Shown here piece by piece: positions 1,991 through 43,137 of a stretch of 44,983 nt of DNA. Position numbers and translations under genes: made by a program. The stretch lies in the sequence record PP920551.1; one strand, written 5' to 3'. The DNA comes from Escherichia phage KS_S9. Position 1 is the first letter of the stretch; every line of letters starts with the position of its first letter. The notes under the pieces are model-generated. The model made no database searches. It was not told the origin of the DNA and saw only the letters and a program-made list of their open reading frames with translations.

Positions 1991-3511
1991 ATGACCGTTA
2001 ACGTTGACAACCAGCACCCACTTTATGCGCGCATCGCGCCAGAGTGGAAGATGATCCGCGATTGTGTGGCAGGGGAGCGCGCCGTGAAGGCGTGCGGCCC
2101 TTTGTACCTGCCTCATCCCGCCAGTGGAGACAATACTGACCCGAAATCGCGGGCGCGGTATAAGGCGTACAAGCAACGCGCTGTATTCCTGAACGCCACC
2201 GCCCGCACACTTAACGCGCTGTTAGGCGTTGCCTTTGCTAAACCGGTAAGTCTGGACCTTTCCGGGGCGATGGCTGACCTGATTGACGACGTAGACGGCA
2301 GCGGTATGCCTCTGCCGCAACTACTGCGCGGTGCTATGTCGGAAGTGCTGCAATCAGGCCGTGCGGGCTTTATGGTGGACTACGATCGCCAGGCGCATTT
2401 TGATGAACTGGGTAACGTAGTTCCGCAGACAGCCGCCGAGATGGCGTCACACCGCCCGCTTATCCGCCTGTACACGGCAGAACAGATCATCAACTGGCGG
2501 CAGACCCACGGCGTCGATACGCTAATTGTGCTGAAGGAAACGGACGAAATCAGCACCGAAGACCCGGACGACTTCGCAAACCACGAAGTAACAATCTGGA
2601 CCGAGCTTCGCATGATTAACGGTGCAGCACACGCCCGCCGCTGGTACTACAACGCGGACACGTCCGAGGTGCAAATGGATTTGCCGCGTGGATTCACCCG
2701 CACCGACCTGGTGCCGCTGGTGGATGCCTCCGGTAATGCGCTTACACAACTTCCGTTTTGCTGGTGTGGTGCGGTGGACAACAACGCAACGCCTGACGCC
2801 GCTCCGCTGGCGGATATCGCGTCCATCAACATTAAGCACTACAACGCCGAAGCGGACGTCGCCGAGATTGCGCACATCGTGGGCCAACCTACCCTCGTTG
2901 CGACGGGCTTGACTCAATCATGGGCGGACAAAAACCTGAAGGGCGGCATTGCCCTCGGTGCGACTAAGGGCGTTATCCTGGGCCAGAACATGGACGCTAA
3001 ACTGATCCAGGCGGAGGAGCGCAACTTGTCGGTTGCACTGTGTGAGCGTCGCGAATTGCAAATGGCTAAACTAGGCGCAGCCCTGGTCGAGAAGGGGACC
3101 GCACCTAAGACGGCAACCGAGGCGGCCTACGATGCGCAGACTGATAACAGTATCCTGTCGCTTATTGCCGGTAACGTTGAGAAGGCTTTCAACCGTGCGC
3201 TGCAAATCGTCCAGCTATTCACGGGCGACACCGCCGACCAGCGCGTAACGCTGAACAAGTTCTACACCGAAATCACGGTTGATGCGCAGCTTATGACCGC
3301 GATGATGTCGGGGGTGCAGACTGGCACGGTCCGCCTGGCTGACTTCATCAAGTGGATGATGGCGCAGGGCGTCATCGACGACTCGCAAACTGTCGAGCAG
3401 GTGGAAGACGAATTGCGAAATCAGAATCCATTGCCTCAAATGTCCCCTGATGCGGTAGAATCTACCGAAGAAGACCCGGACAAGGTAGCGGACAATGGCG
3501 AAGACAATTAA
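1991..3511 (+). CDS. Portal protein
   Basis: 506 aa ORF immediately after large terminase, acidic C-terminus, AGGAAA RBS; gene order terminase-portal-head morphogenesis. Confidence 0.8.
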   Translation: MTVNVDNQHPLYARIAPEWKMIRDCVAGERAVKACGPLYLPHPASGDNTDPKSRARYKAYKQRAVFLNATARTLNALLGVAFAKPVSLDLSGAMADLIDDVDGSGMPLPQLLRGAMSEVLQSGRAGFMVDYDRQAHFDELGNVVPQTAAEMASHRPLIRLYTAEQIINWRQTHGVDTLIVLKETDEISTEDPDDFANHEVTIWTELRMINGAAHARRWYYNADTSEVQMDLPRGFTRTDLVPLVDASGNALTQLPFCWCGAVDNNATPDAAPLADIASINIKHYNAEADVAEIAHIVGQPTLVATGLTQSWADKNLKGGIALGATKGVILGQNMDAKLIQAEERNLSVALCERRELQMAKLGAALVEKGTAPKTATEAAYDAQTDNSILSLIAGNVEKAFNRALQIVQLFTGDTADQRVTLNKFYTEITVDAQLMTAMMSGVQTGTVRLADFIKWMMAQGVIDDSQTVEQVEDELRNQNPLPQMSPDAVESTEEDPDKVADNGEDN

Positions 3512-4598
3512 TCAATATTTGGCGGATCGAATGATTCGCCGTCACATCTTCACCCAGCGCCTGAGCAATGATCAGGCGCGGAGGGTGCTGGCTATGTGGG
3601 AGAAGTTCCGGCCCGCTTTACTGGGTAAGCTGACCGAGTTACTTGATGGCAAATCGTCAATGAATAACAAGGCACTTTCCACTCTGTTAACGCAACTCGA
3701 CAAGACCGTCAAAGCGGAACTGCGCACCGAGTTTAAGGCGCTGGCTGAAAGCCTTCAGGAGTTCGCCGACACCGAGGCTGATTATCTTGCCGACACATTA
3801 ACGGCAGCGATCCAGCCCGCGGTCGCAGTGCCTGCGGTTGAGGTGGTGGGTGTAGTGACCGGGGCACAGATCGCAGCGACGGCGATGAAAAACCCGTTCC
3901 AGGGTAATACGATGATGCAATGGCCTGACTCACTTTCTGAGTGGACCAGGACGCAGATCGGGAATCAGGTGCGCGCCGGATTCATCCAGGGCAAGCCGAC
4001 GATGGAAATTATCGCGGATGTGAGGCGCGCGCTAGGCGGTCGTAGTGCGCAAGCAATCTCAAGCGTTGTTAAATCCGCAGTCAACCACTATGCGGCTACA
4101 GCCCGCGAACTAATGGTAAAAGCAAATGACGATATTCTCGAAGGTCGCCAATGGTTATCTACATTGGACACGCATACTTCTCCCATGTGCCAGCTACGCG
4201 ATCGCCTGTTTTATCCGGTTGATGCTACTCCCGACACCAAAGGAAAGCGCGGCGGGAAAATGGTGGCTGGGTCACAATATGGCGCTGGTCCGGGCAAGTT
4301 GCATTATTGTTGCCGGTCGACGGAGACGTGGAAGGTTAAAGGCATGGAAGATTGGCCCAGTGGTAAGCGTCCGGCACTGAAGGCTGACGCGGGTCGATTG
4401 CTGAGTGAGCAGGTCGACGCGCAGACTGATTTCTTCTCATGGGTGCAGCGCCAGCCGCGCCATATCCTGGAAGAATTATACGGAGTGCAACGCGCCGACC
4501 AGATTATGCGCGGAGTGAAAGTGCCGAAGATGTTCACCGATTCCGGCGAACTAATGACTATCGCACAGCTTAAAAACCGGGGGTTATGGCGTGATTAA
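3495..4598 (+). CDS. Head morphogenesis protein (Mu F / SPP1 gp7-like minor head protein)
   Basis: 367 aa following portal; contains HYCCRS, resembling the HxNCRC signature of F-like minor head proteins. Confidence 0.7.
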   Translation: MAKTINQYLADRMIRRHIFTQRLSNDQARRVLAMWEKFRPALLGKLTELLDGKSSMNNKALSTLLTQLDKTVKAELRTEFKALAESLQEFADTEADYLADTLTAAIQPAVAVPAVEVVGVVTGAQIAATAMKNPFQGNTMMQWPDSLSEWTRTQIGNQVRAGFIQGKPTMEIIADVRRALGGRSAQAISSVVKSAVNHYAATARELMVKANDDILEGRQWLSTLDTHTSPMCQLRDRLFYPVDATPDTKGKRGGKMVAGSQYGAGPGKLHYCCRSTETWKVKGMEDWPSGKRPALKADAGRLLSEQVDAQTDFFSWVQRQPRHILEELYGVQRADQIMRGVKVPKMFTDSGELMTIAQLKNRGLWRD

Positions 4599-4920
4599 AT
4601 ATGCAGCGATTGGACTGGTTATCGGTCTGGCGGTAGGATTCTGGCTAGGCGACTCCTATCGTACTGGCGTAGTGGCGGAGGCGGCGCAAGAAGCGCAAGC
4701 CAAAGCCCAACGGCAGCAAACTAAAGTTGTTGAGCGCTCCGTGCAGGCCGAACAGGCCCGCGACGTAGAATACCGGACTATAACGAAAGAGGTTGTTAAA
4801 TATGTTACGCGCCCTAACCGCCCTGATTGTAGTTTTGATGCTGAGCGCGTGCGGATCAAGCAACGTGCCGTTGATGCCGCTAACGGAGTCGGCACTGCGA
4901 CCGCCGTGCAAGTTCGATAG
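4591..4920 (+). CDS. Rz-like inner-membrane spanin (i-spanin)
   Basis: GTG start with GGGGG RBS; N-terminal TM segment (AAIGLVIGLAVGFWLG) then Q/A/E/R-rich helical region; a lipoprotein ORF is embedded in its +1 frame. Confidence 0.6.
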   Translation: MIKYAAIGLVIGLAVGFWLGDSYRTGVVAEAAQEAQAKAQRQQTKVVERSVQAEQARDVEYRTITKEVVKYVTRPNRPDCSFDAERVRIKQRAVDAANGVGTATAVQVR

Positions 4921-5032
4921 CCCGTCCTCAGACCCCGACGAGGATTTGATGATTGACGTGAAAAATATGGAATGCGGGGCGAAGCTAAGGGCGCAGGTGT
5001 TGGAGTTGCAGCAAATAATTAAGGGGCCGTGA
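4802..5032 (+). CDS. Rz1-like outer-membrane lipoprotein spanin (o-spanin)
   Basis: Signal peptide MLRALTALIVVLMLSAC with lipobox LSAC; short Pro-rich mature part; starts inside the Rz-like ORF in another frame and extends past its stop; AAGAGG RBS. Confidence 0.65.
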   Translation: MLRALTALIVVLMLSACGSSNVPLMPLTESALRPPCKFDSPSSDPDEDLMIDVKNMECGAKLRAQVLELQQIIKGP

Positions 5033-5044
5033 TGGCCCCCTTTT
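5023..5044. terminator. Bidirectional intrinsic terminator between convergent genes
   Basis: GGGGCC-gtgat-GGCCCC hairpin followed by TTTT on plus strand and T-rich run on minus strand; lies between Rz1 stop and stop of minus gene 5047..5811. Confidence 0.6.
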
Positions 5045-5046
5045 CG

Positions 5047-5811
5047 TTAGCGCGGAATACCGCAAATCTCGTTTAACGTCTTCACGTCCAGCGCCACCGC
5101 CGTGGACTTCGGCTTGTCCGGGTAAGGAATGAACTGTTCCACTTCAGGCCACGCCTTGATCAGCTTCTTATCTGTATTGTGCATATCCAGCACGCCGGTA
5201 ACAGTTAGTTTGAACGCGTCATACTTAGCACGTAACTCACGGCGGGCCTTGTCGTTACGGTCCAGGCGCTTACAGAAATCATGGTCCGCCGGGTAGTCTA
5301 TACGACCGCGTGGCATGTATATCGGCAGCGCTTTCCCGTCGTCGTCGACTTCGCACACTGACGCTAACAAAATTTCCTCATACCCTGGCACAATATCGCC
5401 GAGATCGGGAGACAGTTTATTCATGTATTTATACTCCCAGTATCCGCGATGTACTCGGAATCGGTGTCCGTCTCCGCTCAATGACACGGTACGGACGTTT
5501 CCGCCGGCGTTGATTTCGAAAGTGGCGTCATAAACGCGGCCGATACCATACGGGCGGTCAGCGTTATAACTATACGTCGCCTTGTTGGTGTATACACTTA
5601 CTCCGTACATCTGCGACGGGTCATCGCCGATTGCTTTAATGCGCGCGAGTAGCTCGGCGAAAGTGCGAATGCCTTCCGGCATACAGTCCAGCGTAATGGC
5701 GTACGCAAGGTCGCGAGAGTCCATCATGATGGATTTTGCTTCGGTCGCGATTTCATGGTCGCGCAGGATGTTAGCCAGAATCTGGTTTTTAATGTCTTTT
5801 GTCAGTCTCAT
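5047..5811 (-). CDS. Hypothetical protein, minus-strand orphan gene inside head module
   Basis: 255 aa from ATG 5811 with GAGGA RBS; the longer ORF-track version (to 6258) is a low-complexity extension overlapping the scaffold gene. No family recognised. Confidence 0.55.
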   Translation of the reverse strand: MRLTKDIKNQILANILRDHEIATEAKSIMMDSRDLAYAITLDCMPEGIRTFAELLARIKAIGDDPSQMYGVSVYTNKATYSYNADRPYGIGRVYDATFEINAGGNVRTVSLSGDGHRFRVHRGYWEYKYMNKLSPDLGDIVPGYEEILLASVCEVDDDGKALPIYMPRGRIDYPADHDFCKRLDRNDKARRELRAKYDAFKLTVTGVLDMHNTDKKLIKAWPEVEQFIPYPDKPKSTAVALDVKTLNEICGIPR

Positions 5812-5840
5812 TAGTGTGTCCTCGTTGTTGGTGTGCAACC

Positions 5841-5869
5841 AATATATGCAACCAATACGAGGATTGCAA
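5841..5869 (-). promoter_or_regulatory. Sigma70-like promoter for gene 5047..5811
   Basis: On minus strand TTGCAA-N17-TATATT, with ATTGGTTGCA motif copies forming the -35 and spacer; about 25 nt upstream of ATG. Confidence 0.45.
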
Positions 5870-5959
5870 GCGAATTTTGCGATTATTTTTATCGCTGATA
5901 ATATTAGAAGCGTGAAGTCGAGCGGGTGGCCTGCTCTGCCACAATCCCAGGGGGATAGC

Positions 5960-6661
5960 ATGAAACTTACTAAAGCAGAATATGACGCGTTGCCGGAAGG
6001 TATGAAGGCGCTTTTTGTTGCCGATGGCGACGGGTATAAATCAACTTTCATGACCGCAGAAGAAGTACAGGCGGAAATCAAGGGTCTGAAAGACAACAAC
6101 GCGAAGCTGGTGAGCGAGAAGAAAGCAGAAGCTGAACGCCGCGCCGAAGCCGAGCGACTTGCGAAAGAGAAAGAGGAAGCCGCTGCGCGCAAAAATGGCG
6201 ACCTCGAAGCGATCGACAAGTCCTGGAAAGATAAGTTTGCTAAACACGAAGCAGACACAGCGGGAAAAATCGAAGCCTACCGCAAGCAGATCCACGATCT
6301 AACCATCGGCAGCGCTGCCAAAGACCTGGCATCGAAGCTATTCGGTAAGAATGCCGGCATCATGCAACGCCACGTAATGGACCGTCTGACGCTGGAAGAC
6401 GGCGAAGACGGCAGCTTGAAAGTGCGTGTCTTGCAGGATGGCAAACCGTCCGCGCTGACTATGGAAGAGTTAGAAAAAGAGTTCCGTAATAACGCCGATT
6501 TTGCATCCGTCCTGGCTGGCACGCCAGCCGGTGGCGCGCCTAGCAAACCGACGCAGGTTGTCGAAGATGTGAAGTCTAAAATTACGATGGGCCATAGCTT
6601 CGGTATCACCGATCTCACCAAACAGGCCGGTGAAATCATCGCTAAAATGGGTGACGAGTAA
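5960..6661 (+). CDS. Putative head scaffolding protein
   Basis: 233 aa from ATG 5960 (AGGGGGA RBS); A/E/K/R-rich predicted coiled coil (AEAERRAEAERLAKEKEEAAARK); directly upstream of major capsid gene. Confidence 0.6.
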   Translation: MKLTKAEYDALPEGMKALFVADGDGYKSTFMTAEEVQAEIKGLKDNNAKLVSEKKAEAERRAEAERLAKEKEEAAARKNGDLEAIDKSWKDKFAKHEADTAGKIEAYRKQIHDLTIGSAAKDLASKLFGKNAGIMQRHVMDRLTLEDGEDGSLKVRVLQDGKPSALTMEELEKEFRNNADFASVLAGTPAGGAPSKPTQVVEDVKSKITMGHSFGITDLTKQAGEIIAKMGDE

Positions 6662-25416: not shown

Positions 25417-25446
25417 AATATAATGCAACCAACCTATTGGTTGCAA
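25417..25446 (-). promoter_or_regulatory. Sigma70-like promoter overlapping perfect palindrome TGCAACCAA-ccta-TTGGTTGCA
   Basis: On minus strand TTGCAA-N18-TATATT; palindrome 25424-25445 straddles the stop of the HAD-like gene; leader hairpin CGGGGC-N6-GCCCCG at 25391-25408. Confidence 0.45.
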
Positions 25447-26125: not shown

Positions 26126-26591
26126 GTAACTCACTCTCGCTCATTATTTCAATTTGTGCGCTGCCGATTGGTGGCGCTTCGTCAAAGATTATCAATTGCT
26201 GGCACTTGTTATTGCTCGGCCCGACTTCACCGGTGACGGCGTGAATGAATCTAATCCGCCAGTCCAGAAGAATTATCAGGTTTGCAGTCTTCCGGGCCAG
26301 CCTCGCCCACTTCGTCGACGTGTCCTGATTCAGTAGCATGACAGTCCGGCGACCGTGCGCTGCGCATTCCACCCACGGCAGCGGGTCGGAATACGGCGGA
26401 TTGCACCACTTCCACCCTTTCAACTCGGACCAGTCCACATCAAGCGCGCTGTGTTCCGCCGTGAAGTAACGCGGTAGCAGGTGGTTTGCATCGCTTGCCG
26501 CCATATCGTAACGGAATCGGTACTTCCGACGAAGCGGTTTAAATAAAGCTGGCGGCGTGCGCCAGCTATCTTTTTGCTCACTCTTCTGCAT
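26106..26591 (-). CDS. DNA N6-adenine methyltransferase (phage Dam family)
   Basis: 161 aa; WRTPPALF near N-terminus, DMAASDAN and NPPYS (motif IV-like) match the small phage Dam family pattern. Confidence 0.8.
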   Translation of the reverse strand: MQKSEQKDSWRTPPALFKPLRRKYRFRYDMAASDANHLLPRYFTAEHSALDVDWSELKGWKWCNPPYSDPLPWVECAAHGRRTVMLLNQDTSTKWARLARKTANLIILLDWRIRFIHAVTGEVGPSNNKCQQLIIFDEAPPIGSAQIEIMSESELHEYLNR

Positions 26592-27036
26592 GATCTGGAT
26601 CTATCGCGTACAGGGCAATTTTCTTGTCGCTGGACAGAACGCGCCGGACTCGGGCCATATCCGCCGGACCCAGCGGTCGGCCATCGGAATAGTAGCTGCC
26701 GTTAGCACGCCACGCTATCAGCACCAGATCTTTCCGGTCGATCTTAGACTGGCGGCCCTTCGGGCGCACGTATTCCTCGGCCCGTTTGCAATGCTCGCGA
26801 AGACCTTCGGCAGTGATGCGGTTTAGTGCAACGCTGGTTGTGTATCCGGTGCGCTGCATAATCCCCATCAATTCGAAAAGCAGTTCGAAGCGCTCCTCTA
26901 GCTCCTGGCGCACTTTCTTCTCACCTTCATATAGCGCCTGTTTGGTGTCCGCCAGCGCGTTCGCACGTTCGGCCTGTTCGCGGGCTTCGAGGCATTGCGC
27001 GGCCCAGTAATTTTTCTCTTCTTGTAAAATTTTCAT
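26578..27036 (-). CDS. Hypothetical protein with N-terminal coiled coil
   Basis: 152 aa, GGAGA RBS; E/R/A-rich N-terminal helix; no family recognised. Confidence 0.45.
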   Translation of the reverse strand: MKILQEEKNYWAAQCLEAREQAERANALADTKQALYEGEKKVRQELEERFELLFELMGIMQRTGYTTSVALNRITAEGLREHCKRAEEYVRPKGRQSKIDRKDLVLIAWRANGSYYSDGRPLGPADMARVRRVLSSDKKIALYAIDPDHAEE

Positions 27037-27326: not shown

Positions 27327-27355
27327 AATATAATGCAACCAATCTAATTATGCAA
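27327..27355 (-). promoter_or_regulatory. Sigma70-like promoter with tandem ATTGGTTGCA motif
   Basis: On minus strand TTGCAT-N17-TATATT; two direct motif copies 17 bp apart. Confidence 0.45.
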
Positions 27356-40065: not shown

Positions 40066-40282
40066 AATAAAATCCGGGGATTGCAAAATACACGGCAGCA
40101 CGATGCGAAGTGCTGGCGAGGATGAACTAGGCAACCAATACGAGTTGCATTATGCTGAGTGAAAAATGCAGTTTGCAGTCACAGCAGATAGCGATCAACT
40201 TTTTCATGCGCGTGATTAATATTGGTTGCATTCGGCCTGGCACCCGGCTATATTGGTCGCACACCAACATGAGGACTGATCG

Positions 40283-40588
40283 ATGAGAGCACTAATCTGG
40301 AATTACTCACTGGCCCTGGCAAAGCTGAACGAAGCGAAAGCGCTAAACGGCAACGTAGACCGTGCGCGCCAGTTTGCGACACTGGCATACCAGTCAATCA
40401 TGTGTGCGCTAGACGATATGGACGCCGGCATGGATGACCTGGGTCCGCTGCGTAAGGCAATCCATGAATACGCGCTGGCATTCTCCCGTGAGCGCCTGGC
40501 TTATCGCTTCGGTATTGGCGAGAAGGCAGTGACAAACGTCGCCAGGATTAAAGCCCAGCGTGAGCTATTCGCCCAGCTTGCGAAATAA
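40283..40588 (+). CDS. Hypothetical protein
   Basis: 101 aa, GAGGAC RBS, first ORF after the repeat-rich region. Confidence 0.5.
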   Translation: MRALIWNYSLALAKLNEAKALNGNVDRARQFATLAYQSIMCALDDMDAGMDDLGPLRKAIHEYALAFSRERLAYRFGIGEKAVTNVARIKAQRELFAQLAK

Positions 40589-42126: not shown

Positions 42127-42417
42127 ATGGATAAGCTAAACGAGTGGTTATTTGCCCTCGCATGTCTGGCAGGCGGCTTCGTAGGCGCACGCATTCACGG
42201 CGAGGCTACGAAAGGGCCGCTAAACTTCGTGTTATATATCGTAGTTGGCTTCCTGTGTGCCATCTTTGGTGCGCCAGCTATCGCCGAGTGGGCTGGCTTA
42301 TCTGGCGAGCGCACTGTCGCCGGTTTGGGCTTCGTAACTGCAATCTTCTGGATGACAATAGCAGCCCGGATCAGGGAGACTATTGAGTCGTTCCGACTTC
42401 CGGGGGGCGCAAAATGA
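42127..42417 (+). CDS. Putative holin
   Basis: 96 aa with 2-3 predicted TM segments, charged C-terminus; directly upstream of endolysin. Confidence 0.5.
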   Translation: MDKLNEWLFALACLAGGFVGARIHGEATKGPLNFVLYIVVGFLCAIFGAPAIAEWAGLSGERTVAGLGFVTAIFWMTIAARIRETIESFRLPGGAK

Positions 42418-42659
42418 TTATCTCCGTCCTGTTGTTTGTTATCATAGGGGCTTCGTCCCTGTTTAATGTGTATGCGCCGTCCGTCCAGGATGGCATTTTA
42501 GGCCGGGTGTTATATCTGCTAACGGCGATGATCTGCGTTATCGGATTGTTGCAAACGGGAGACGTATCAGACACCACCTGGACCGCGTTAATCTGGCTGT
42601 TTGCATTGCGCACACTGCGTAATGCTGTTTTGAATGGGGTAAAACATGCGATTCAGTGA
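42414..42659 (+). CDS. Putative holin or antiholin (second membrane protein)
   Basis: 81 aa, GGGGGG RBS, 2 hydrophobic segments; ATGA overlap with preceding gene, overlaps endolysin start. Confidence 0.5.
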   Translation: MIISVLLFVIIGASSLFNVYAPSVQDGILGRVLYLLTAMICVIGLLQTGDVSDTTWTALIWLFALRTLRNAVLNGVKHAIQ

Positions 42660-43137
42660 CAACGGTCTAAGATTTACGGCAGCATGGGAGGCTTTCAGCC
42701 CGGTGCCGTATTTCGCGACCAAGAAAGAGCAGGCCCGCGGCCTGTACACTTGGGGTTATGGTCATACCGGCACTAATCCGCCTCGAAGCATTACCCGCGA
42801 GGAAGCGCTGGCACTGCTCAAGCGCGATGTGGCGTATGCTGAGGACTGGGTGAACAAATACGCACATCCGAGCATTAACCAGGCGCAATTCGACGCGCTG
42901 GTGGACCTGGTAATCAACGCCGGTCCGGGTCCGATCGTACCGGATGACGTCGCGAATGATTTCGATGATGCGGTCCGCCTGGGCGACTGGGCGAAGGTAC
43001 GTGCTACTCTGCCGCAGTTCCGCAAGCAAGGTGGCGAAGTGCTTAAGGGTCTGGTGCGCCGTGCAATCGGCAGACAGGCGTTGTTTGATGGTAAGCAGTG
43101 GGACGTTGCCGAGAAAATCGGTCGTAACGCTGCATAA
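42646..43137 (+). CDS. Endolysin (T4-lysozyme-like muramidase, GH24-like)
   Basis: 163 aa; pattern LYTWGYGHTG...QFDALVDLVINAGPG resembles phage lysozyme family. Confidence 0.8.
   Translation: MRFSDNGLRFTAAWEAFSPVPYFATKKEQARGLYTWGYGHTGTNPPRSITREEALALLKRDVAYAEDWVNKYAHPSINQAQFDALVDLVINAGPGPIVPDDVANDFDDAVRLGDWAKVRATLPQFRKQGGEVLKGLVRRAIGRQALFDGKQWDVAEKIGRNAA

Follow-up and report, generated by a model that had tools for sequence, protein, structure and literature searches.

The genome of Escherichia phage KS_S9 (PP920551.1), whose 44,983 nucleotides were analysed as a whole and are called the window here, carries within its head morphogenesis module a gene that is transcribed against the late genes on both sides of it. 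What such a gene does at this position, and whether it is a sporadic piece of cargo or a regular part of the genome, is the question that this locus raises. An earlier note, made from the sequence alone, had seen in it the architecture of a moron or accessory cargo gene, with a promoter and a terminator of its own. The source of the window is a Dhillonvirus, its genome is complete or nearly so, and the 3 kb around the gene are 94 to 96% identical to those of the phages McMelon, Opt212, mckay, BF9, SM_A8, and SM_S22. The gene, nmad5, is already known and published, as is its link to defence through escape from Tmn: in SM_A8 and SM_S22 it was the subject of Yamashita et al. 2025, Commun Biol 8:290 (PMC11846954). 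The genes of these two phages are orthologues of the one in the window, with the same position, strand, and 254-aa frame and with protein identities from ∼93% (SM_A8) to 97%; they differ from it in that the SM_S22 annotation is over-long (334 aa) and in that SM_A8 has an extra small open reading frame (ORF) that is absent from the window.

Reading frame, neighbours, and transcription signals

The coding sequence of nmad5 occupies positions 5047 to 5811 on the minus strand, with its ATG at 5811 and its TAA at 5047 to 5049, and encodes 254 amino acids, or 255 codons if the stop is counted, which confirms the minus-strand gene of about 255 aa that had been described before. A Shine-Dalgarno sequence, GAGGA (5819 to 5823, minus strand), lies 7 nt 5′ of the ATG and is kept in BF9, SM_S22, Bas84, and LM40P1. 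We place the start at 5811 because the N terminus M-R-L-T is family-wide, with R2, L3, and T4 present in 87 to 98% of diverse homologues. Two longer versions were rejected: a 403-aa frame that opens with a GTG at 6258 and extends antisense into the scaffold gene is an artefact, and the 334-aa annotation of SM_S22 is a start over-extension that also runs antisense into this gene. The placement of nmad5 between the spanins and the scaffold gene, on the opposite strand, is borne out by the ORFs on either side, all on the plus strand. Upstream lie the overlapping genes for the i-spanin (4591 to 4920) and the o-spanin (4802 to 5032), a pair for which Bas84, EK99P-1, and SM_S22 have the annotations i-spanin and Rz-like spanin; downstream lies the head scaffolding gene (5960 to 6661; ATG at 5960, with GGGGGA upstream), named after the head scaffolding protein in the annotation of relatives. 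The translated spanin region contains a lipoprotein-type sequence, LSACGS.

A promoter scan of positions 4500 to 6500 returned a single promoter-like site, on the minus strand at 5841 to 5869, with a σ70-like −35 element TTGCAA (5869 to 5864), a 17-nt spacer, and a −10 element TATATT (5846 to 5841). The consensus match alone proves nothing, since matches at 9 of 12 positions are as common as expected by chance (11 against 12.8 expected in 20 kb), and as stand-alone evidence for a promoter it was rejected. What makes the nmad5 promoter credible is the combination of its intergenic position, at the correct distance from the gene, with its conservation in other phages and with a duplicated cassette elsewhere in the window. 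In the divergent allele of LM40P1, whose Nmad5 protein is 63% identical by tblastn, the elements TTGCAT and TATATT at 17-nt spacing are kept, and so is the leader GGTTGCACACCAAC...GAGGA, while the sequence of the spacer has diverged. SM_A8 retains both hexamers in a variant form and at the same spacing, again with an altered spacer sequence. The cassette, a paralogous promoter plus leader, lies on the plus strand at 40220 to 40282, upstream of an ORF (40283 to 40588) in the small-gene block after the helicase-primase. Its elements are TTGCAT, 17 nt, TATATT, and GGTCGCACACCAACATGAGGA; up to the start of the gene, the order is TTGCAT, 17 nt, TATATT, GGTCGCACACCAACA-TGAGGA, and ATG, near-identical to the region upstream of nmad5.

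The 11-mer TGCAACCAATA has 14 sites with at most one mismatch across the genome compared to 0.81 expected, a number that none of 100 shuffles reached, and most of these sites are intergenic and stand beside promoter-like sequences. Two tandem copies (5834 to 5844 and 5847 to 5857, plus strand) overlap the spacer, the −10 element, and the start of the leader of nmad5. The earlier claim of a motif-containing σ70-like promoter is thus upheld as a prediction, by the conservation in LM40P1 of the two elements at 17-nt spacing and by the enriched 11-mer with its two copies there. The predicted bidirectional terminator likewise holds: the scan finds a hairpin of the form GGGGCC-loop-GGCCCC at 5021 to 5041, between the convergent stops of the o-spanin gene and nmad5, which folds on both strands (−13.4 kcal/mol with a z score of −1.75 on the plus strand and −15.6 kcal/mol with a z score of −3.17 on the minus strand) and is kept in LM40P1 with a substituted loop. 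No transcript map turned up in a literature search on Dhillonvirus transcriptomics, and the promoter, the start site, and the timing of nmad5 given here are inferred from such signals. On the other side of the intergenic region, within a block (5864 to 5959) that is near-invariant across six Dhillonviruses, TTGCGA followed by TGaTAATAT, of the extended −10 type, was picked out by eye at 5877 to 5904 on the plus strand; it scores under the threshold of the scanner, and we only infer that it may be a divergent promoter for the scaffold and capsid genes.

A near-core gene of the Nmad5 protein family

The earlier note had recognised no motif in the protein, a statement that the family search overturns. 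The protein matches Pfam PF18757 (Nucleotide modification associated domain 5) from end to end, over profile positions 1 to 206 of 206, with an E value of 9.9e-56 and a score of 189.5 bits against a gathering cut-off of 27. It also matches phrog_1965, a family of unknown function, and the annotations of BF9 and Pandora71 already call it an Nmad5 domain protein. Orthologues in McMelon, BF9, SM_A8, and SM_S22 are 93 to 99% identical. All signature residues of the family are present, that is, R-L-T, a central G-G, T-x-x-K-L-x-x-x-W-P-E, and L-N-x-x-x-G-x-P, which in the alignment with 52 to 70 diverse homologues correspond to R2, L3, T4, G103, G104, T213, K216, L217, W221, P222, E223, L246, N247, G251, and P253. 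A phmmer search of 1.84 billion cluster representatives retrieved 101 clusters, with conservation concentrated in residues 160 to 254. Among 70 diverse sequences, the strongest conservation is mostly hydrophobic or structural (L217, W221, P222, L246, and G104), and the conserved polar set is small (R2, T213, K216, E223, and N247); residue 216 is K or R in 73% of them and Q in 17%. Such a distribution looks more like a binding surface than a classical catalytic centre; in a new enzyme fold, however, the polar cluster of N247, E223, T213, and R2 could equally form a catalytic or ligand site.

Structure prediction and fold search, which the earlier note had proposed as checks, place the protein next to other Nmad5 proteins only and next to no known enzyme fold. 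The AF2 model reached a pLDDT of 68 with 31 homologues and, with 52 more diverse ones, a pLDDT of 80.8 and a pTM of 0.75. The model has a three-helix unit in its N-terminal part, a central β-sheet region (residues 79 to 110 and 171 to 173) that carries a Dhillonvirus-specific insert, and a C-terminal part made of a long helix and then short helices. Foldseek against BFVD matched solely Nmad5 proteins (E values from 4.5e-30 to 2.6e-5, TM scores up to 0.78), and a sequence search of the PDB at E values up to 1 gave no match. An NCBIfam sigma-factor match (E value of 0.18, 12 bits against a cut-off of 247) was set aside as chance. None of the defence-protein models of PADLOC-DB 2.0 was matched at E values up to 1. 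The broader Nmad5 alignment has no stretch conserved enough for a pattern search; the patterns used on 185,579 representative bacterial genomes were those of the subfamily and gave 60 pattern matches, none of which was confirmed as a relative.

Full-length nmad5 is found at the same position in 145 records, compared to 158 Dhillonvirus records counted by a major capsid protein of at least 80% identity (∼92%). The exceptions include JL1, where only an N-terminal remnant is left, one record in which the gene is split at the ends, and a partial genome. The GC content of the gene (0.523) and its GC3 (0.624) fall within the ranges of the neighbouring genes (0.52 to 0.58 and 0.58 to 0.68). Pairwise dN/dS among five genomes is 0.07 to 0.16 and varies along the protein, with 0.02 in residues 1 to 44, 0.19 in the middle (residues 45 to 165), and 0.05 in the C-terminal part; in LM40P1 the middle domain is just 50% identical and the flanks are ∼90% identical. 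The gene is thus a near-core gene of the genus under strong purifying selection and not sporadic cargo, and on this point the moron reading gives way to the near-complete distribution, the native composition, and the low dN/dS. Of what the earlier note had named as speaking against cargo, near-universal presence of homologues at this position was found and a known structural role was not. What stands of the proposed architecture is the accessory gene: an autonomous unit on the opposite strand, dispensable, and linked to defence through Tmn escape.

In the sister genus Eiauvirus, represented by Edwardsiella phage eiAU, the head-morphogenesis gene is directly followed by the scaffold gene, which points to nmad5 as an insertion into the head module; the eiAU homologue, P858_32, lies instead after the helicase-primase (Pfam E value of 2e-68, hhalign probability of 99.3%). 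The slot is also somewhat plastic, as SM_A8 and JL1 have an extra minus-strand ORF of ∼105 aa and a hairpin between the promoter and nmad5; these extra ORFs gave no Pfam match. With phage morons of the lambda type, nmad5 shares a promoter and a terminator of its own (both seen as signals) and a position between two genes that lie side by side in a related genus. Unlike morons, it is neither sporadic nor compositionally foreign, it is antisense to a late operon, and it belongs to a virulent phage.

Genomic contexts of homologues and the DNA-modification label

The Nmad5 family was reportedly defined by Iyer et al. in 2013 through neighbourhood with nucleotide-modifying genes. Such a neighbourhood exists in YuA/M6-like phages, where the homologue sits inside a thymidine hypermodification cassette. 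In the Sphaerotilus phage SN1, a phage of this type, the gene SN1_019 belongs to the same Pfam family and matches nmad5 in the window at an E value of 3e-11 (tblastn), with ∼38% identity over the C-terminal 80 residues. SN1_019 is 186 aa long, is devoid of the Dhillonvirus middle insert, and lies upstream of a family-A DNA polymerase module, co-directional with genes for aGPT-Pplase, 5-hmdU kinase, a rSAM protein, a PLP enzyme, and a hydroxymethylase. All of these partners are absent from the window: when the SN1 proteins (hydroxymethylase, kinase, aGPT-Pplase1, rSAM, and PLP) were run against it by tblastn, they gave chance matches only (E values of at least 0.04), the thymidine hypermodification trio of pyrimidine hydroxymethylase, 5-hmdU DNA kinase, and aGPT-Pplase was not found in it, and the annotation of Bas84 agrees that the cassette partners are absent. 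The immediate neighbours of nmad5 are spanin and scaffold genes, not modification enzymes.

A broader view of the family leads away from the cassette. Among 341 phage records that match Nmad5, most are Dhillonviruses or lambdoid/Stx phages, and the examples inspected (Bas84, mEp235, and eiAU) have no hypermodification cassette. The lambdoid homologues (mEp235, HK244, and Stx1/Stx2 phages) belong to the same family, with a Pfam E value of 3.7e-72 for mEp235, and are ∼32% identical over the C-terminal third only. They differ from nmad5 in that the phages are temperate and the gene is co-directional within an operon, and they resemble it in being orphans with no modification enzymes nearby; in mEp235 the homologue lies in the pL operon between N and kil, and the lambdoid setting in general is one of genes for recombination and for interference with the host that are not essential (N ... 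kil, erf, ssb, exo). In metagenomic siphophages, the homologue comes second in a replication operon that also encodes a DUF2800 exonuclease, an Enc34-type SSB, and PolA. Further homologues lie in the early region of a P2-like prophage, in a nucleotide-metabolism block with ThyX, dUTPase, and RNR, next to a replication initiator, or divergent from a primase gene or a small-terminase gene. The early context is not universal, since one Vibrio phage has a weak homologue within its tail module. What these contexts share is a link to early functions, replication, recombination, or nucleotide metabolism rather than to hypermodification itself.

These contexts argue against the label of DNA modification enzyme, which appears ill-suited to the Dhillonvirus and lambdoid genes. 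In the 2025 paper, this label rests on one computational study, its reference 29 (PMC11846954), and in the literature found, no biochemical activity in nucleotide modification is reported for any Nmad5 member. Dhillonviruses have been described as showing “only moderate sensitivity” to the restriction-modification (RM) systems tested (PMC11990801), and this degree of restriction is a weak argument against a heavily modified genome. The point matters beyond this phage, in that the label is spreading through annotations and papers on the strength of a neighbourhood in one phage group alone.

Escape from Tmn and the role of Nmad5

The published genetics give the most direct view of the protein. 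Escape mutants of both SM_A8 and SM_S22 that had become insensitive to Tmn independently carried K216E, which is K296E in the over-long numbering of SM_S22; reverting the mutation brought Tmn sensitivity back, and engineering it gave escape (PMC11846954). A phage deleted for nmad5 is viable and still Tmn-sensitive, cloning of nmad5 in E. coli was unsuccessful with toxicity as the apparent cause, and it is a separate anti-Tmn gene, not the wild-type nmad5 allele, that protects against Tmn (PMC11846954). The nmad5 gene of the window encodes the wild-type Lys216, shared with SM_A8 and SM_S22 and mutated to Glu in the escape phages, and this residue lies within the signature T-x-x-K-L-x-x-x-W-P-E, the most conserved motif of the family. 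A 2026 preprint offers a parallel: Tmn is activated by direct binding of RIIB, an early protein of phage T2 that is called a replisome component; a single residue decides Tmn activation and can separate it from RIIB binding; and RIIB nonsense mutations give Tmn escape, with escape mutations clustered in one gene (PMC13001434). The resemblance of Nmad5 to RIIB is one of behaviour, with no claim of similarity in sequence or fold, and the two differ in that loss of T2 RIIB leads to escape, whereas loss of Nmad5 does not.

In our view, the best explanation, to which we give about even credence, is that nmad5, transcribed on its own, encodes a non-structural accessory protein which works through binding and whose conserved C-terminal patch, including K216, interfaces with Tmn sensing. 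Its own promoter and opposite orientation would uncouple its expression from that of the structural genes and, given the shared promoter-leader, it would probably be co-expressed with the early or middle gene after the primase at 40.28 kb. The product would be a non-virion α+β protein, probably working by binding rather than catalysis through a patch formed by R2, T213, K216, W221, E223, and N247. The protein probably partners with a host factor or with some phage component of replication or nucleotide metabolism, which would fit both the apparent toxicity and the early and replication contexts of homologues elsewhere. K216E would most plausibly be a dominant allele that engages Tmn, or its true trigger, without activation, because the deletion gives no escape while K216E does. 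We put forward this dominant step as a hypothesis, by analogy with T2 RIIB, and the failure of the deletion mutant to escape could also reflect redundancy or construct effects.

Other explanations account for parts of these data. That wild-type Nmad5 is itself a direct Tmn trigger, as RIIB of T2 is, with K216E abolishing recognition, would explain why independent escape mutants of two phages share one residue in the most conserved motif and why reversion restores sensitivity, and it agrees with the activation of Tmn through binding of an early phage protein in which single residues are decisive (PMC13001434). Yet Tmn inhibition persists in the nmad5 deletion, so Nmad5 is not the sole trigger, and we hold this explanation to be improbable. 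We are hardly more inclined to see Nmad5 as a DNA- or nucleotide-base-modifying enzyme or its obligatory subunit, with Tmn sensing modified DNA and K216E altering the modification, and consider this doubtful. The origin of the family name, the SN1/M6-like homologue between aGPT-Pplase1 and pyrimidine hydroxymethylase, and the homologue beside ThyX, dUTPase, and RNR genes all speak for it; an active site could be made up of the invariant Asn and the conserved Glu, Thr, and Arg, and the DNA methyltransferases encoded by the Dhillonvirus genome are possible partners. However, the window has no cassette enzyme, the protein resembles no known enzyme fold, the phages that make up most Nmad5 records are without the cassette where inspected, and the RM systems tested do restrict Dhillonviruses to a degree (PMC11990801). 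Moreover, Tmn is triggered by a phage protein (PMC13001434), and the unchanged Tmn sensitivity of the deletion phage is hard to square with a sensed modification (PMC11846954).

A horizontally acquired, sporadic moron or cargo gene for defence (superinfection exclusion) or anti-defence is what the earlier note had in mind, and much of the anatomy would suit it: the promoter and terminator signals, the opposite orientation, the insertion between head genes that adjoin each other in the sister genus, the plastic slot with the ∼105-aa ORF in SM_A8 and JL1 and the truncated nmad5 of JL1, and the faster-evolving middle domain (ω of 0.19), half identical in LM40P1. The gene is also dispensable, apparently toxic, and connected to Tmn escape. 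Against this stand the full-length gene in ∼92% of the genus records, its native composition under strong purifying selection, the zero PADLOC models matched, the lack of a subfamily relative among the bacterial genomes searched with subfamily patterns, and the protection from Tmn by a separate gene and not by the wild-type allele; we rate this explanation as unlikely. Hardly any weight falls on a head-morphogenesis or structural accessory protein, which the position near the head-morphogenesis and scaffold genes and the weak Vibrio-phage homologue in a tail module might suggest. The gene is on the opposite strand with its own signals, the sister-genus homologue follows the helicase-primase, and most homologues are in early regions; we rejected a structural role on the viability of the deletion phage and on the cell-free lysates of phage EE09, in which the 24 proteins detected include no 254-aa entry.

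The accessory binding protein that we favour can be extended to a wider reading, which we offer as tentative and consider unlikely as a whole. Nmad5 would then not be base-modifying and would represent a family with a fold unlike solved structures that docks early in infection onto a conserved host or replisome component; its conserved T-x-x-K-L-x-x-x-W-P-E motif would be a surface read directly by the sensor arms of Tmn, and K216E would act as a dominant decoy that does not activate it. If this were true, Tmn would have a second class of ligand, unrelated to the first, and the Pfam name of Nmad5 would be misleading. As accessory genes go, the anatomy of nmad5, with its own promoter and terminator and its antisense orientation, is ordinary; the gene is of value as a handle on the function of the Nmad5 family and on the sensing of siphophages by Tmn. 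For phage therapy, it is relevant that the phage of the window, with its wild-type K216, is predicted to be Tmn-sensitive unless an anti-Tmn homologue of its own is active.

Conservation and variation at the nmad5 locus

The stretch that separates nmad5 from the scaffold gene (window 5864-5959) is near-invariant across six Dhillonviruses. It contains a candidate extended −10 promoter on the plus strand (TTGCGA at 5877-5882 and TGaTAATAT at 5896-5904), together with a small stem, GTGGC...GCCAC, and it is likely the place where late transcription would restart past the terminator at 5021-5041.

In the two such Dhillonvirus genomes inspected, SM_A8 and JL1, an additional minus-strand ORF of ~105 aa lies between the promoter and nmad5 (SM_A8 2353-2667; JL1 2747-3076), at a point equivalent to window positions ~5812-5833; it is accompanied by a GGGGC...GCCCC hairpin, and a Pfam search with it returned no match. 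Matches in ZCEC10-12, EK99P-1, PTXU06, SM_W22, and Zumzum fall into two pieces, which suggests that these phages bear similar insertions. In JL1, nmad5 itself is truncated, with an N-terminal remnant left.

In the Dhillonvirus LM40P1, a divergent nmad5 allele (1201-1962) sits within conserved flanks: the flanks are ~90% identical, while protein identity is ~63-65% overall and only 50% across residues 45-165. This pattern indicates either that the allele has been replaced or that the middle domain is diverging at an accelerated rate. Among close relatives, the middle region of nmad5 has an omega of 0.19, compared with 0.02 and 0.05 at its ends.

The public annotation of SM_S22 (CDS0006, 1548-2552) places the nmad5 start 80 codons too early, and the over-long reading frame overlaps the scaffold gene on the opposite strand (compare window 5047-6258). 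Because of this early start, one and the same mutation carries two numbers, K296E and K216E, depending on the phage (PMC11846954).

Sequences shared with other promoter-like regions of the window

A promoter-plus-leader cassette closely matching that of nmad5 is found on the plus strand at 40220-40282, in the order TTGCAT, 17 nt, TATATT, GGTCGCACACCAACATGAGGA, and ATG, upstream of an ORF in the post-primase block (40283-40588; 101-aa product). The near identity of the two cassettes suggests that nmad5 and the 101-aa gene are co-regulated.

The 11-mer TGCAACCAATA occurs at 14 sites in the window at one mismatch or fewer, against 0.8 expected (5834, 5847, 21944, 25435, 27334, 27351, 30308, 36944, 39848, 40130, 40220, 40251, 40785, and 43387). 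The majority of sites, which occur in both orientations, are intergenic and adjoin promoter-like hexamers. The copies at 5834 and 5847 are arranged in tandem, as are those at 27334 and 27351, and position 25435 holds a palindromic pair. The 11-mer may serve as a promoter element of the phage or as an operator for a phage-encoded regulator.

Related genes and gene order in other phages

The product of the minus-strand gene at window 26581-27036 (152 aa) shares 75% identity with SM_S22 CDS0035 (154 aa, helical in its N-terminal half). CDS0035 probably corresponds to the anti-Tmn "ORF35" described in PMC11846954. That paper reports activity differences between close homologues, so the sensitivity of KS_S9 to the bacterial defence Tmn is not predictable.

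The spanin genes (window 4591-5032, plus strand) are placed in the head module; ~37 kb separates them from the genes for holin and endolysin (42127-43137, plus strand). Unlike the window, the sister genus Eiauvirus lacks the spanin and nmad5 block between the head-morphogenesis and scaffold genes. Its Nmad5 gene, P858_32 of Edwardsiella phage eiAU (28135-28776; Pfam E value, 2e-68), is located past the helicase-primase, in the same direction as its neighbours and outside the head module. Given this placement, the gene has either been relocated or been acquired separately in Dhillonvirus and Eiauvirus. A weak homologue in Vibrio phage 1.094.O (3557-4276; E value, 1e-5, over the C-terminal third) sits within a Mu-like tail gene cluster, a second instance of the Nmad5 family in a structural module.
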